Positions 21,201-28,465 of a stretch of 63,054 bases of DNA are shown here, one piece after another (position 1 is the first letter of the stretch; every line of letters starts with the position of its first letter). The DNA is from Candidatus Pampinifervens sinense (GTDB taxonomy: Bacteria > Aquificota > Aquificia > Aquificales > Aquificaceae), in NCBI GenBank assembly GCA_037927135.1, contig JAXSPP010000003.1, positions 104,471-167,524 of the forward strand, given 5' to 3'. The position numbers are program-made.

Positions 21201-24200
21201 AGGCAACTGTTTTCCATCTGTATAAAACATGACCTAAATCATAAACACAACTCATTGAGTTCCTTGAAATATTTTAATGGGACAATTTTAAGCTATAACA
21301 ATATGATATGCACCATATTATGAAAAGGAATGATAAACTCACATGCTAAAATATTAGTGCAATGATTACAGAACTAACAATTTCTAACTTTAGGTCCATA
21401 AAGAAGCAAAAAATAAAACTTGGTGCTTTAAATGTGCTTTATGGACCAACGGCAAGCGGAAAATCCAGCCTACTATATGCTCTTATGGTATTTAACAAAA
21501 TAATAACCAATCCAAACCAACCCATAGATAACTTCTTTGACCTTGGATTTATAGACCTTGGAGGCCTAAAAGAGTGCCTTTATGGAAAGGATGAAGAATT
21601 GGCCATGGAAATATCTTACTCAACAAACTCTGGAGAGTTTGGTATATCCCTAAAAAAGGACAAAGCAAACACCTATCTTAAATACAAAAACATTAAGCTA
21701 ACTGCGGAGTTTAGCATACCTTATAAACAGACAAAGATATTTGAGACAAAAATAGACCTTAAAACTCTAAAAGGTAAAGCCTATTGGAATGGTTTTTATG
21801 TGCTTGGCTTGTCTGGAAGCGTGGAGGAAGAAGGACAAACTGGAAATTTAATCTCTAAGCTTAATGAAATAGCCAACACTATTAAACAGGTTGATATAGC
21901 ACCGCATAACCGTGGATTTTTTGAAGCTTTTTATTCACACTACCTAAGGTATGAAGTTCCACACGTCCTTATATCCGATGAAGAGGTAGCATCAGCCATA
22001 ATAAACCAAGAAGACCTTGTACCAAAAATAAGCAAAGCTTTGGAAGAGATTGCAAACAAAAGCTTTAGGATACATCCTATCCAAGGCATACCATTATCAA
22101 GATTTCTTATACAGGAAAAAGGTTCAAATCAAGAGATTTTAATTACCAACGAAGGCTTTGGAATTAATCAGGTAGTTTATATGTTTGCAAAGCTTTATCT
22201 AAAAGACAAAAAGATAATACTCATAGAGGAACCAGAAATACACCTACATCCATCCATTATTAGAAAGCTTGCAAAAATTATGTGTAAAATTGTGGAGGAA
22301 GAGAACAAACAGATTATATTGACTACACATAGTGAAGTTTTTGTATCTTCCTTATTGTCTGCTATTAGAAGGAAGGATATATCACACAAAAAGGTAAAAT
22401 TCTATTTGGTAGAAAAGGAAAAAGGAGAGACCATATTTAAGGAGCAGGAATGTGATGAGAAAGGGAGGATAAAAGGCGGGCTTTCTTCTTTTATGGAAGG
22501 AGAATTAGAAGACCTAAAAGCATTTTTTGAAATTTAAAAATGATTTTGGTAATAGATGAATGGATATGGCATGTACTCATAGGGGAACATGGAAGAGAAG
22601 AACAGGAAAAGGCAATAAGGTTTTTAATAAAAATGATAGAAAAATGTGATAAACTGGCTGTAGCCCATAAATCAAAGTTTGAAGAGAAGTTGCGGAAATT
22701 TTTAAAACAAAGTGATACTGAGAATAGGAGGGTAGCAAGAATACTTACTAACAATATATTTTATAACAGTGATAAATACCTTGAAGTTCAATTAAGGGAA
22801 AAGGATATAAATATTGAATGCGTTAATATTGACGATAAATATTTAGTAAACCTGTGCTATCAATTGATGGAAGATTACGGCGAGAAAGAAGTTGTGTTTA
22901 TAACCACGGATAGGAAACTAATAGAATGCCTTAAAAAAGAAAGTAGCAAAATAAATTGTTATACGAAGGAAGATTTTCTGGAGAACTATCTTGATTAGAT
23001 TTTATTATCTCTCCAAACGGCTATAATATAAACCATGGGGGGTTTTGATATATAATATAAACCATGGGGGGTTTTGATAGTGTCCTTGGGTTTGTCTTTG
23101 AGGGGGCCTTTAAGCTGGGGTTTTTAAAAGATAGGATTCCTGACTATAAGGATTTTACTGAGGGTGTTTTTGCCAAGCTAAAGGGTGAAGCAGAAAGGGC
23201 AGAAGATGAAGAGCTTGTAAGAATAATAGAGGATATAGAGAGAGCCTTTGACAAGTATGATGTTTTTAATCCACCTGAGAATATGAGGGAGCTAAGCAGG
23301 CTTTATGTGAGTTATACAGAAGATGGGGAAGGGCAGGGTATAAGAAGGGAGTGGAAGGAGATATATACTAAGCTTGTCTTTGCCATAGGCTATGCAGGTG
23401 GGTATTTTTACAACAAGAGCCTTAAGGATGTGGAGCTTAAAAGGTATGAGATGGGGGAAGAGTCGGATGAGATCATATGGCAGAATGCGGACCTGGTCTT
23501 TGTGGAAGGTAAAACGCTTCATATAGTAGACTTTAAGCTTGGTGGAACGAGAAAGGTTTTAAGAGATATTTTAACTGGTTCAAGAAATAGGATACCTATA
23601 CAAACCTACGGTATACCAGTAAATCTGTCTTTGGGTGAGCTGGAGTTTTATAACTTTTTAGAGAAGTTTATGCAAGTGAAGGAAAAGTTGAGGGAGTCGG
23701 AGGATGTTTTTGTGGAAAATAAGGGGCTTTTGCAGGTGCTTTCTTATGCGGTAGATTTTCTCTGTTCTGAAGAGGATCCTATAGATGAGGTTAGCTTGGA
23801 GCTTTTGTATCCAGTGCAGGAGCCTTTGAGCCTTAGGTTTTTTGTAAAAAACAGAGAGGGGCTTGTAAAGTTTGCAGAGGAGTTAAAGGAGCTGTATAAG
23901 GATATAAAGGGTAAGGAAAAGCTTTATAGGGAAGTGGATGTAGAGCCAGAAAAGGAGGGGGCAAGGAAAAAGAGAGTAAGAGAAGAGGTAAGTAAAAGAA
24001 TTGGAGAGCTGGAAGAGGAGATAAAGAGAAGGGAAAAAGAAAAGCTTGTGCTTAAGACTGGAGATATAAATGCTGTTAGGGATGATGTTAAAAGAAGACT
24101 GGAAGATTTTATGAAAAGGCCTGAGCCTTGTAAGGCTATTGCACTTCTTCACTCCGCCGGTAGTGGAAAGACTTCAAGGACGAGGGAGCTTATACTTGGT

Positions 24201-27200: not shown

Positions 27201-28465
27201 TTGGGAAATGCCAAGATAAAGTTGGTAGGGTCTGTAAAGCTCCTGGATGAGCTCTTTGGCAAGAATGGTGCCCTTGAAATTATCAAAGGATACAATTTGG
27301 AAGAGAGAACGCTAAAAAACAAAGATTCTGTGGACCTTGTATATTCCCTTGCCTATTTTTCTGCGAGGCTTTCAAACCTTATAGCCCAGATAAAGGATGG
27401 AAAGCTTAAAAACAAGTTTGTGGGAATTTTAATACTTTTGAACACAGAGTTTGAGGAGGGTGATAGGTATGCCCTTTGGGATGTGGTTAGCTTCATTTAT
27501 GATTACTTTGGCGTGCCTGTTCAAACTATTACCAAAAGGTCCTTGCGGTCTATATTTGATAAAGATAAAAAGTCTGGTACAATAAAAAACCTTGCCATAA
27601 GCCTTTATAAAGATTCAAAAGTTTTAGAGGTTGAATTTGACGGCTTTGACCTTCCAAAGGAAGCTGTGGTCTATGCGGTGGTAGAAAAGCCATCACCTAG
27701 GTTTTTCTACAGACGTGGAGAGATAGATGGTGGGTCAAGACACTATCTTTATGAAGTCTATAAGATAAGCATAAAGGAAAAAAGGGCCAAGATAGAGCTG
27801 GAGAAAAAATATTTTGAACTGCATGGTATGAGGGAGCTTGGAATAGAAAGTTTTATTGAAGAAAAGAAGAATTATCAAAATACCAAGTTCTGTTTTATAA
27901 CCACCTTAAGAGATTCTAAGCTTGGAGAACTTTATACCAAGCTTTCCACTCCAGAAGAGGAACACAAATTTTTACTCATCAGGTATGACGAGCTTAAAAC
28001 GGCATACTTTTCCGATAAGTCAAGGCAAGATTGCTACATAGTCTATACACAGGAGATGAGAAAGCTTTTTGAAAGGCTTGGCATACCAATAGAAAAGGAT
28101 GTGGCGGCCATAGCCCTAAAGCCAGCCCATCCACCTTCCATGGAAGAGGATATGTACCATCCTTCTTTACAGCTTTTCTTTACAGAAAGGGTAGGCTGGG
28201 AAAGGGATGATGTCTATTCTGAAAGGAAAAACCTCTTCATCTTTACAGTCCTTGCCCTCTCTATGTATGAAAGCGAGTCCTATATGACACCTTTTAGCAA
28301 GCTTAGCCTTTGGACTAAGGAAAGAAACTATTATCTTACTATAAGAAGGAATTACAAAGAGTATACGTTTCCGTTAAAATCTGTACTTTATGAGATGCTT
28401 ATGTTTGTTCAGGAAAGGCCTGGTGGTAAAGAATCTTAGCTATAAAACTTGCGGGGGCGGGATTT

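Follow-up and report, generated by a model that had tools for sequence, protein, structure and literature searches.

A diverged Argonaute-fold protein and its paired, predicted nuclease-helicase in Candidatus Pampinifervens sinense

What do two large, adjacent genes at the end of a low-GC island in Candidatus Pampinifervens sinense encode, and do they act together? The window considered here, the whole stretch of 63,054 nucleotides that was analysed (contig positions 104471-167524), holds both open reading frames exactly where an earlier note had put them: 23064-26105 (+, 1013 aa, here P0001) and 26109-28439 (+, 776 aa, here P0002). The features of the locus are as follows.

23022..23079, + strand: perfect 29-bp tandem duplication of repeat family D6, read from the sequence
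23064..26105, + strand: P0001 gene, 1013-aa predicted nuclease-helicase (open reading frame and 58 full-length relatives)
23064..23858, + strand: P0001 N-terminal domain, residues 1-265, with a RecB-like PD-(D/E)xK signature
23859..24098, + strand: helical, coiled-coil-like linker, residues 266-345 (model helices 265-283 and 299-325)
24099..25448, + strand: SF2 helicase core, residues 346-795 (motifs and fold)
25449..26102, + strand: conserved C-terminal domain, residues 796-1013 (invariant columns and model)
26109..28439, + strand: P0002 gene, 776-aa Argonaute-fold protein
26109..27080, + strand: P0002 N-terminal lobe, residues 1-324 (mixed helices and strands, from secondary structure)
27081..27620, + strand: MID-like domain, residues 325-504
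27621..28436, + strand: PIWI-like (RNase H-fold) domain, residues 505-776
28449..28522, - strand: tRNA-Met (CAT) gene, 10 nt past the operon stop codon

The 29-bp duplication includes a TATAAT box and an ATG, and the real start codon of the P0001 gene lies within its second copy; no Shine-Dalgarno sequence was read 5' of this codon, and 23064 may be a leaderless start. The two genes are separated by a gap of 3 nt, and a GGAGG motif is located about 10 nt before the P0002 ATG, within the 3' end of the P0001 gene. Both features are signs of an operon. In scans, promoter-like sites (25 observed vs 20.2 expected) and terminator-like sites (3 vs 7.6) were at background. On its right side the low-GC island stops at the tRNA-Met gene, of which no attachment-site repeat was found within 11000-29000. 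Metatranscriptome reads from three hot-spring sets, sampled at 3-5%, covered the tRNA-Met gene (28449-28522) only and not the operon, a result that is uninformative on expression.

The N-terminal domain of P0001 is predicted to be a RecB-like PD-(D/E)xK nuclease. Its signature comprises E133, D143 and D156-x-K158, followed by E218 and Q224-x3-Y228. All 25/25 P0001-family sequences share D143, D156, K158, E218, Q224 and Y228, and E133 is nearly invariant; three diverged members (26-31% identical) keep all signature residues, E133 included. In the AlphaFold2 model of P0001 (pLDDT 84.1), D143 stands just before strand 144-148 and D156/K158 at the end of strand 151-157; this is the RecB/Cas4-like arrangement of D...(D/E)xK, then QxxxY, on a beta hairpin. 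Alignment of the domain to stand-alone RecB-like nucleases with hhalign gave a Prob of 25%, centred on the motifs. The PADLOC model Aga_Cas4-like_Nuc matched P0001 weakly (E 0.0089) and, within the family, only 2/25 members, again weakly. A language-model comparison of residues 1-265 pointed, at scores of 0.81-0.87, to neighbours with PDDEXK_1 (in 17-19% of members) or Dna2 (in 77%), which provides a lead on the kinship of the nuclease and nothing firmer. Kinship with Cas4 was considered and rejected, as alignment with 25 Cas4 proteins of Aquificaceae in hhalign yielded a Prob of 0.4%. PF01930 (Cas4) has no match in the Candidatus Pampinifervens sinense genome, and the four-cysteine cluster of Cas4-type nucleases is absent from P0001.

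Downstream of the linker, where Pfam matches were coiled-coil-type noise only, P0001 carries two RecA-like lobes with the motifs of an SF2 helicase: Walker A (S364-A-G-S-G-K369-T370), D505-E506, T680-S681..R685-G686-x-D688 (motif V) and Q717..R721-x-R723-G724 (motif VI). Helicase_C was matched in 25/25 family members, and the whole-model structure searches covered residues 335-953. The C-terminal domain is conserved at Y863-x-H865-P-Y867, G955-R-G957 and C972, and its tail is highly conserved. The description of the 1013-aa protein as a PD-(D/E)xK motif joined to an SF2 helicase holds: the nuclease signature is invariant, and both motifs and fold of the helicase are seen. ORFs of about 1000 aa in a sister family, which have PADLOC Cas4-like matches, had been suspected as P0001 orthologues. 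They were rejected: four such genomes (G102, G105, G121 and G124) have no match to the P0001-family profile (A3), so these ORFs encode a different protein, which at a guess is AddB-like.

P0002 had been described as an Argonaute-fold protein that lacks a family hit, and on both counts this proved correct: the fold is visible to structure and not to sequence models. Pfam returned DUF4158 only (E 0.032), PADLOC 0 families at E<=1 and NCBIfam 0 matches. Pfam Piwi (PF02171) did not match P0002 at E<=1, nor any of 25 family members at E<=10; the same model matches 21/178 Aquificota genomes, and none of its matches is in G000. A profile HMM of 25 P0002 members retrieved from the PDB sequences only a ribosomal protein (E 0.14). 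Local hhalign of the family against 15 classical pAgos from Aquificota gave a Prob of 14%, and in global mode the alignment to known Argonautes was meaningless. The predicted structure nevertheless has a Rossmann-like MID followed by an RNase H-like PIWI domain, as in solved Argonautes, and by this model P0002 belongs to the Argonaute fold class as a deeply diverged member. Matches to long Argonautes begin at model residues 109-128, with an aligned span of only ~330-350 residues, and neither PAZ nor APAZ was assigned in residues 1-324. When all 1.84 billion representatives were searched with phmmer, 39 proteins were found at E<=0.001 (45 had been given before). Among the best 8000 candidates from a 5.8-billion-protein index, the P0002 alignment matched 16 proteins at E<=1; each is a close family member, and no Pfam domain was seen in any of them.

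The two genes travel together. A PIWI-like match is present in 41/178 Aquificota genomes, 37 of which also have the helicase, and in 36 of these 37 the helicase gene immediately precedes the PIWI-like gene in the same orientation; the gene order is reversed in G041. The pairing, first noted as adjacency in 10/10 informative loci, is thereby strengthened. Furthermore, the four most diverged PIWI-like genes each adjoin helicase genes diverged to a like degree. These data support an obligate pairing of P0002 with P0001. Complex prediction from alignments, using full-length P0002 and residues 800-1013 of P0001, scored 0.00 in two runs and so gave no answer on contact between the proteins.

As for distribution, the pair occurs in 40/90 Aquificaceae genomes, compared with 20/60 in the earlier count, and split or remnant copies were seen in G041, G051, G064, G073 and G076. 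Its supposed confinement to Aquificaceae was too strong a claim, since the pair is also found in G131, from another family of the same order. A 137.7-kb contig labelled Sulfolobales archaeon has the pair as well, with Pab87_oct and DUF7347 domains among the neighbours, and helicase homologues carry the source labels Micrarchaeaceae, Bathyarchaeia and WOR-3. Tblastn against 72,556 plasmid records found no copy, and 199 pattern matches in IMG/VR contigs included no relative, so that mobility is suggested by the patchiness only. The pair is accessory, with a patchy and relocating occurrence. No description of the P0002 family, or of an Argonaute-like gene pair in Aquificota, was found in the literature, which was screened mainly by abstract.

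In Candidatus Pampinifervens sinense the pair sits within a defence island. Its neighbours are HEPN, an HKD plus Snf2 helicase, a type IIG restriction-modification enzyme, and an AriA/NsnB-like ATPase with a PIN-like protein; the surrounding low-GC island ends at the tRNA-Met gene. Flanks vary among the six other loci examined, with four distinct flank pairs: LepA/pyrophosphatase, LepA/PanE, ThiF/TrkA and ThiF/biotin carboxylase, the last at two loci. Five of the six have housekeeping or transporter flanks and no recognisable defence island.

The pair had been proposed as a compact, fused variant of the pPIWI-RE triad. That triad consists of closely spaced genes in the order REase, DinG helicase, pPIWI-RE, as described by Burroughs, Iyer and Aravind 2013 (PMC3702460). 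The order of nuclease, helicase and PIWI was borne out in 36/37 genomes, with the first two fused; kinship in sequence was not. Both systems have close gene spacing and no methylase in the module, and both have a PIWI-protein N-terminal region unlike PAZ or APAZ. P0002 also resembles pPIWI-RE in size and layout, with E526/D602 to set beside D525/D610 as given for PsPIWI-RE (PMC10991935). The sole link of kinship is the language-model score, 0.94 with low recognition, between P0002 and a cluster with pPIWI-RE Pfam families in 69-71% of its members; the kinship has no basis in sequence. PF13032, PF13111 and PF18157 matched 0/25 P0002-family members at E<=10, and PF13032 was found in 0/178 Aquificota genomes by a weak search that also gave 0/14 in control genomes. 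The defining, absolutely conserved R and E of pPIWI-RE lie in the beta-sheet extension of the PIWI domain; in PsPIWI-RE they are R639 and E718, 79 residues apart according to the published account (PMC10991935). The invariant R747 and E762 of P0002 (each 24/24), as candidate counterparts, are 15 apart. Unlike the triad, the present module has two genes instead of three. Its nuclease, unlike the triad REase, is RecB-like with QxxxY and has no zinc ribbon, and its helicase lacks the conserved Cys-rich (Fe-S) insert that DinG has after strand 2, no conserved cysteine cluster being present in the N-lobe.

DdmDE is a DNA defence module of Vibrio cholerae in which DdmE is a 'long-C' pAgo. DdmE is reported to use 5'-phosphorylated DNA guides and to recruit the helicase-nuclease DdmD, which has a DinG-like helicase at its N-terminus and a PD-(D/E)xK nuclease at its C-terminus (10.1101/2024.05.10.593530). 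P0001 differs in architecture, its nuclease signature coming first (133-228) and its helicase after (346-795). DdmD is absent among the 50 matches listed for the P0001 model, a set that still leaves room for similarity. Co-encoding of an Argonaute with a PD-(D/E)xK or Cas4-like nuclease is shared with long-A and long-B pAgo systems, for which the Cas4-family partner ACE1, described as cooperating with long-A pAgos (PMC12094033), and the BPAN long-B pAgo-nuclease have been reported (PMC12094033, PMC13535254). However, Pfam Piwi detects those pAgos and misses the P0002 family, and the partner nucleases of those pAgos are separate proteins with no fused helicase. Dna2 shares with P0001 the order of an N-terminal RecB-family nuclease and then a helicase; in contrast to Dna2 and AddB, P0001 lacks the iron-sulfur cysteine cluster, has an SF2 and not an SF1 motor, and invariably has an Argonaute-fold gene as its partner.

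Taken together, these features favour, with a probability of about 0.6, a self-contained two-gene nucleic-acid defence system in which P0002 acts as a guide-directed Argonaute-fold protein and P0001 translocates and cuts. Foreign DNA would probably be the target of this guide-directed defence, whose known counterparts are distant analogues only. A hint of a guide is in the MID-like domain, whose ten invariants (Y454, W457, Y464, P470, Q472, K493, N494, S498, K501 and K504) cluster in residues 454-504. The aromatic-to-Q spacing is canonical, in a register set by spacing and the hhalign match of Prob 14%. At the pocket positions, W457 replaces Y in 25/25 sequences, and Q472, K493, N494, K501 and K504 are each present in 25/25. 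Position 461, where the canonical lysine would stand at aromatic +4, shows R (12 sequences), S (10), N (2) or A (1) among the 25, and because this lysine is replaced the pocket is not canonical.

For the pair we infer guide binding, physical interaction, a target type and a defence phenotype as follows. A short guide strand is probably anchored by its 5' end in the MID pocket of P0002 through W457, Q472, K493/N494, K501 and K504, and the loaded protein would recognise complementary invader DNA or RNA. P0001, made from the same operon, may then be brought to the site of recognition or set free there, as analogy with DdmD-DdmE and with the proposed role of the pPIWI-RE triad suggests. By the same analogies, its SF2 motor would translocate on DNA and its N-terminal RecB-like domain would cut.

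An unlikely, though the best surviving, alternative reverses these roles: P0001 would generate guides from invader DNA ends, and P0002 would slice through a candidate DEDX tetrad (E526, E549, D602 and H684). In this way RecBCD/AddAB or the Cas4-family ACE1 turn DNA ends into short single strands for long-A pAgos. Conserved polar residues of the PIWI-like domain are E526 (25/25), H545 (23/25), E549 (acidic in 21/25), D602 (acidic in 17/24), H684 (22/24), E723 (acidic in 24/24), R747 and E762. In P0002 itself all four candidate positions hold an acidic residue or histidine. The distance from E526 to D602 is 76 residues, inside the first-to-third catalytic range of known slicers. For comparison, D525 and D610 of PsPIWI-RE are given as 85 residues apart (PMC10991935), and a Cas4-family partner of long-A pAgos has been published (PMC12094033). 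Nevertheless, the mapping of the tetrad comes from secondary-structure order and spacing, its first position is E and not D, and position 602 is acidic in just 17/24. The glutamate-finger region (570-580) is variable and has no conserved acidic residue, and the sole profile alignment (Prob 14%) pairs the catalytic D of classical pAgos with position 514, which is variable.

It is quite improbable that P0002 is instead a guide-independent sensor of RNA-DNA hybrids/R-loops or DNA ends that passes invaders to P0001. Guide-independent sensing was proposed for the analogous triad by Burroughs et al. (PMC3702460), but the studied analogue DdmE is reported to require a 5'-phosphorylated guide (10.1101/2024.05.10.593530). 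The non-canonical MID pocket could suit another ligand; the tight invariant cluster at the MID 5'-end site, however, points to end anchoring. Roles in DNA repair, replication termination or decatenation have reportedly been claimed for TtAgo and suggested for PsPIWI-RE. That the pair is likewise an accessory factor of this type, and not an immune system, has the slimmest chance of all. In favour of it are the housekeeping or transporter flanks at 5/6 other loci and the altered ciprofloxacin sensitivity and cell division described for a PsPIWI-RE deletion (PMC10991935); against it are presence in only 40/90 genomes of one family, decayed copies, shifting insertion sites and the defence-island location in this genome.

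At somewhat less than even odds, P0002 may represent a new deep pAgo clade with its own 5'-end pocket (W/Q/K/N/K/K) and maybe an E-first catalytic site. On this joint view it would be coupled to a new Dna2-like effector, nuclease first and SF2 helicase after, would cross the boundary between bacteria and archaea in hot-spring thermophiles, and would be distinct from long-A, long-B, long-C/DdmE and short pAgos and from pPIWI-RE. Such a clade would mean that the combination of Argonaute, helicase and nuclease had arisen independently, and it would be a thermostable programmable targeting system. This coupling has been found twice, in pPIWI-RE (predicted 2013) and in DdmDE (demonstrated 2022-2024). 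A third such system, whose sequence shows no kinship to either and whose effector has its domains in the opposite order, would make the three-activity solution a recurrent design, and pAgo censuses based on sequence profiles would miss whole clades visible only by structure prediction. As the hosts are hot-spring Aquificaceae thermophiles, the proteins should be thermostable, which would be useful in biochemistry and possibly for tools. With its presence in about 44% of Aquificaceae genomes, the pair would constitute a major, so far unannotated part of the immune repertoire of this family.

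The pair under study consists of two long open reading frames separated by 3 nt, which fill the interval given in the earlier note, with a short duplication at the start of the first:

23064-26105, forward strand, long ORF: P0001, the 1013-aa nuclease-helicase
26109-28439, forward strand, long ORF: P0002, the 776-aa Argonaute-fold protein
23022-23079, forward strand: perfect 29-bp tandem duplication (TATAATATAAACCATGGGGGGTTTTGATA, two copies), which duplicates a TATAAT (-10-like) box

The ATG of P0002 is preceded at about 10 nt by GGAGG, located within the end of the P0001 gene. 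The ATG of P0001 has no Shine-Dalgarno sequence and lies in the second copy of the duplication, while the first copy gives a 6-codon mini-ORF. The distance from TATAAT to ATG suggests that the P0001 transcript is leaderless. In three hot-spring metatranscriptome sets sampled at 3-5%, reads at the locus fell on the adjacent tRNA-Met gene only.

P0002 was compared with family libraries. Pfam gave only DUF4158 (E 0.032), PADLOC nothing at E<=1 and NCBIfam nothing. Among 25 diverse family members (identity to P0002 down to 19%), neither Piwi nor the pPIWI-RE models found a match, even with the threshold relaxed to E<=10. The family is small: 39 relatives were found at E<=0.001 among 1.84 billion representative proteins, and a word-indexed search gave 15; a profile search of the protein index with the 25-sequence alignment, scoring the 8000 best candidates, gained no outside family, and the family HMM found nothing among all PDB sequences. 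The AlphaFold2 model, built from a 16-row alignment, reached a pLDDT of 81.8 and a pTM of 0.85. Foldseek returned 174 PDB matches at E<=0.001, and those listed were all Argonautes, PIWI proteins, short-pAgo systems or Med13. Three structure searches concurred, and the Argonaute fold predicted from residue 314 or so onward is therefore well supported. Sequence searches are blind to it, which bears out the earlier note's view of an Argonaute/PIWI fold hidden from Pfam.

Invariant columns of the alignment are concentrated towards the C-terminal end of the MID-like domain (Y454, W457, Y464, P470, Q472, K493, N494, S498, K501 and K504). W457 and Q472 are 15 residues apart, as are, in the consensus of classical pAgos, the tyrosine that stacks on the 5' nucleotide and the glutamine that binds the phosphate. 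An hhalign comparison with 15 classical pAgos of Aquificota was colinear and paired W457 and Q472 with these same two residues, at a probability of only 14%. The position four residues after W457, a lysine in classical Argonautes, holds R 12 times, S 10 times, N twice and A once in the 25 sequences. We infer from these patterns that the MID domain probably retains a modified yet functional 5'-end pocket. The PIWI-like part carries the following conserved polar residues:

E526, 25/25
H545, 23/25
E549, acidic in 21/25
D602, acidic in 17/24
H684, 22/24
E723, acidic in 24/24
R747, 24/24
E762, 24/24

Judged by strand order in the model, the RNase H core has E526 at the end of its first strand and D602 after its fourth. 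PsPIWI-RE is reported to be a slicer with residues D525 and D610 (PMC10991935), and the E526-D602 spacing of 76 is similar. Because of this strand order and spacing, an E-E-D-H catalytic site is conceivable in P0002.

The index contains 58 full-length relatives of P0001, and 25 of them were aligned (identity down to 35%). From this alignment and the AlphaFold2 model (pLDDT 84.1), four parts were recognized:

Residues 1-265: nuclease-like domain; N141-A-D143, D156-x-K158, E218 and Q224-x3-Y228 invariant in 25/25, E133 nearly so
Residues 266-345: helical linker
Residues 346-795: SF2 helicase core; invariant Walker A (G366, G368, K369, T370), D505-E506, motifs V and VI
Residues 796-1013: strongly conserved C-terminal domain of unassigned role

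In the model, D143 precedes a strand at 144-148, and D156 and K158 end a strand at 151-157. By its sequence motifs, the first domain carries the predicted RecB-family PD-(D/E)xK signature including QxxxY, which is kept, with E133, in three far more diverged members (26-31% identity in this region). Beyond the signature, support for a nuclease fold is weak. PADLOC Aga_Cas4-like_Nuc matched at E 0.0089 across 20 residues, and 2/25 members match it. With hhalign, the probability was 25% against stand-alone RecB-like nucleases, in an alignment that centred on the motifs, and 0.4% against Cas4. Language-model neighbours of residues 1-265 included some carrying PDDEXK_1 or Dna2 (scores 0.81-0.87), and whole-model structure searches covered residues 335-953 only. 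As for the helicase, Helicase_C matches 25/25 members and ResIII 11/25, and Foldseek retrieved RecQ, DEAD-box, Brr2 and UvrB proteins. No four-cysteine cluster occurs anywhere in P0001, whose sole invariant cysteine is C972; this sets it apart from DinG/XPD helicases and from the Cas4, AddB and Dna2 nucleases.

P0002 would serve as an Argonaute scaffold that binds a guide, and translational coupling would tie it to P0001 as the motor and nuclease. Since this anatomy matches the designs of DdmDE and the pPIWI-RE triad, we propose by analogy, with a probability of roughly 0.6, that P0002 is a sequence-specific sensor and P0001 an ATP-driven DNA-degrading effector. P0002 would sense the target sequence as a guide-binding scaffold, and P0001 would then degrade DNA, driven by ATP. 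The roles could be reversed, with P0001 generating guides and P0002 slicing, as the conceivable E-E-D-H site would allow. However, residue 602 is incompletely conserved and loop 570-580 is variable in the family, which argues that slicing is at best not family-wide. This reversed reading is unlikely. It is less probable still that P0002 senses hybrids or structures independently of a guide, and a repair or replication role is the most doubtful of all.

The PIWI-like profile was run on 178 Aquificota genomes, and the helicase profile on the host family's 90 genomes plus five more. The PIWI-like gene occurred in 41 genomes (40/90 in the host family, 1/50 in a sister family) and the helicase in 37/90 family genomes plus G131, from another family of the same order. 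Both were present in 37 genomes, and in 36 of these the helicase lies directly upstream on the same strand, in line with the adjacency described in the earlier note. In 32 of the 36, the two matches lie -4 to 23 nt apart; in the other four, all diverged, the PIWI-like ORF was matched in part only, and ORF maps of two (G024 and G006) showed abutting or overlapping genes. The only reversed order was found in G041 (locus L102, contig C28, 1022-6766), where a split PIWI-like gene (ORFs of 292 and 579 aa) shares 4 nt with the beginning of a diverged 1060-aa helicase gene and a HerA-like (DUF87) ORF lies upstream. The four PIWI-only genomes comprised contig-edge fragments (G033, G043) and remnants (G051, G073). 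In G051, a genome without the helicase, one 298-aa ORF (C25:163244-164113) fuses N-terminal (model 23-191) and C-terminal (662-775) remnants and looks like a decayed copy after internal deletion. The single helicase-only genome, G045, had a weak coiled-coil match (E 1.9e-5). Stops or splits were seen in G041, G064 and G076. Where the PIWI-like gene is most diverged (E 1e-9 to 1e-34), the adjoining helicase is among the most diverged too, so the two genes diverge together.

The pair was present in 6/6 other loci inspected with 6-kb flanks, between LepA/pyrophosphatase, LepA/PanE, ThiF/TrkA, ThiF/biotin carboxylase (two loci) and glycosyltransferase/DUF7347; no conserved third gene was found among them. 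One of the six, a pair of 1013 and 781 aa (L037:2956-8343; PIWI-like identity 50%) with Pab87_oct and DUF7347 domains nearby, comes from a contig of 137.7 kb that bears the label Sulfolobales archaeon, and helicase homologues are labelled by their sources as Micrarchaeaceae, Bathyarchaeia and WOR-3. These labels may reflect transfer among hot-spring organisms, between bacteria and archaea in the case of the Sulfolobales contig, or binning errors; in both cases confinement to Aquificaceae was too strong a claim. Searches of 72,556 plasmid records and of IMG/VR viral contigs found no copy of the pair. Classical, Pfam-recognisable pAgos occurred in 21/178 genomes and together with the P0002 family in only two (G069, G080).

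The genes around the pair are as follows:

12464-13624, forward strand: two overlapping ORFs without family (138 and 155 aa), then a 114-aa HEPN protein
13638-20403, forward strand: 1070-aa HKD/PLD and Snf2 helicase, overlapping a 1189-aa type IIG Eco57I-like restriction-methyltransferase
20431-21225, forward strand: 264-aa protein without Pfam family, partial cyclase-like matches
21362-22998, forward strand: 391-aa AAA_15/AriA/NsnB-like ABC ATPase, directly followed by a 152-aa PIN-like protein
28449-28522, reverse strand: tRNA-Met (CAT) gene, beginning 10 nt past the P0002 stop

Five defence-type items precede P0001 on its strand: the HEPN protein, the HKD/PLD and Snf2 helicase, the type IIG enzyme, the 264-aa protein, and the ATPase with its PIN-like protein. 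The two small ORFs and the HEPN protein may be a nucleotidyltransferase-HEPN toxin-antitoxin-like unit. The helicase, with top PADLOC matches to 'HKD+Snf2' and DrmD-like, may form with the type IIG enzyme a two-gene restriction or DISARM-like unit. For the 264-aa protein, the PADLOC matches are short and partial and point to CBASS-type oligonucleotide cyclases (E 1.3e-10 for the best, residues 32-78). The ATPase and PIN-like protein, immediately 5' of P0001, are a distinct candidate defence pair whose adjacency to P0001/P0002 is not kept in other genomes. GC is 33-41% between about 20 and 28.4 kb and 44-48% beyond, climbing from about 0.39 to 0.46 at the tRNA-Met gene, a likely island boundary; no attachment-site repeat matching this gene was found within 11000-29000. 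With such genes upstream and the tRNA downstream, the pair closes a defence island in the Ca. P. sinense genome. A tRNA-Sec (TCA) gene lies at 40966-41061 on the forward strand.

DdmE is described as a catalytically dead Argonaute with 12-14-nt 5'-phosphorylated DNA guides, which recognises plasmid DNA and brings in DdmD, a helicase-nuclease (10.1101/2024.05.10.593530). The pPIWI-RE triad, in the order restriction-fold nuclease, DinG helicase and PIWI protein, was predicted to be an RNA-dependent restriction system (PMC3702460). The module resembles both in its proposed working but, on the features compared, fits neither. The earlier note's pPIWI-RE variant agrees in gene order, but the Pfam pPIWI-RE models match no P0002 member, the helicase lacks the Cys-rich insert and the nuclease is of another type. 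The defining R/E pair has no mapped counterpart in P0002, where R747 and E762 are invariant but 15 residues apart, against 79 in PsPIWI-RE. Relative to DdmDE, the effector domain order is reversed and the helicase is not demonstrably DinG-like, and DdmE matches the P0002 structure less well than classical Argonautes do. The literature consulted, mostly at abstract level and with the supplementary pPIWI-RE member lists of Burroughs et al. outside its scope, gave no description of this family. The P0002 family appears as an independent Argonaute clade, orphan by sequence, whose partner is a new fusion of nuclease and helicase; the module is common in one thermophilic family.
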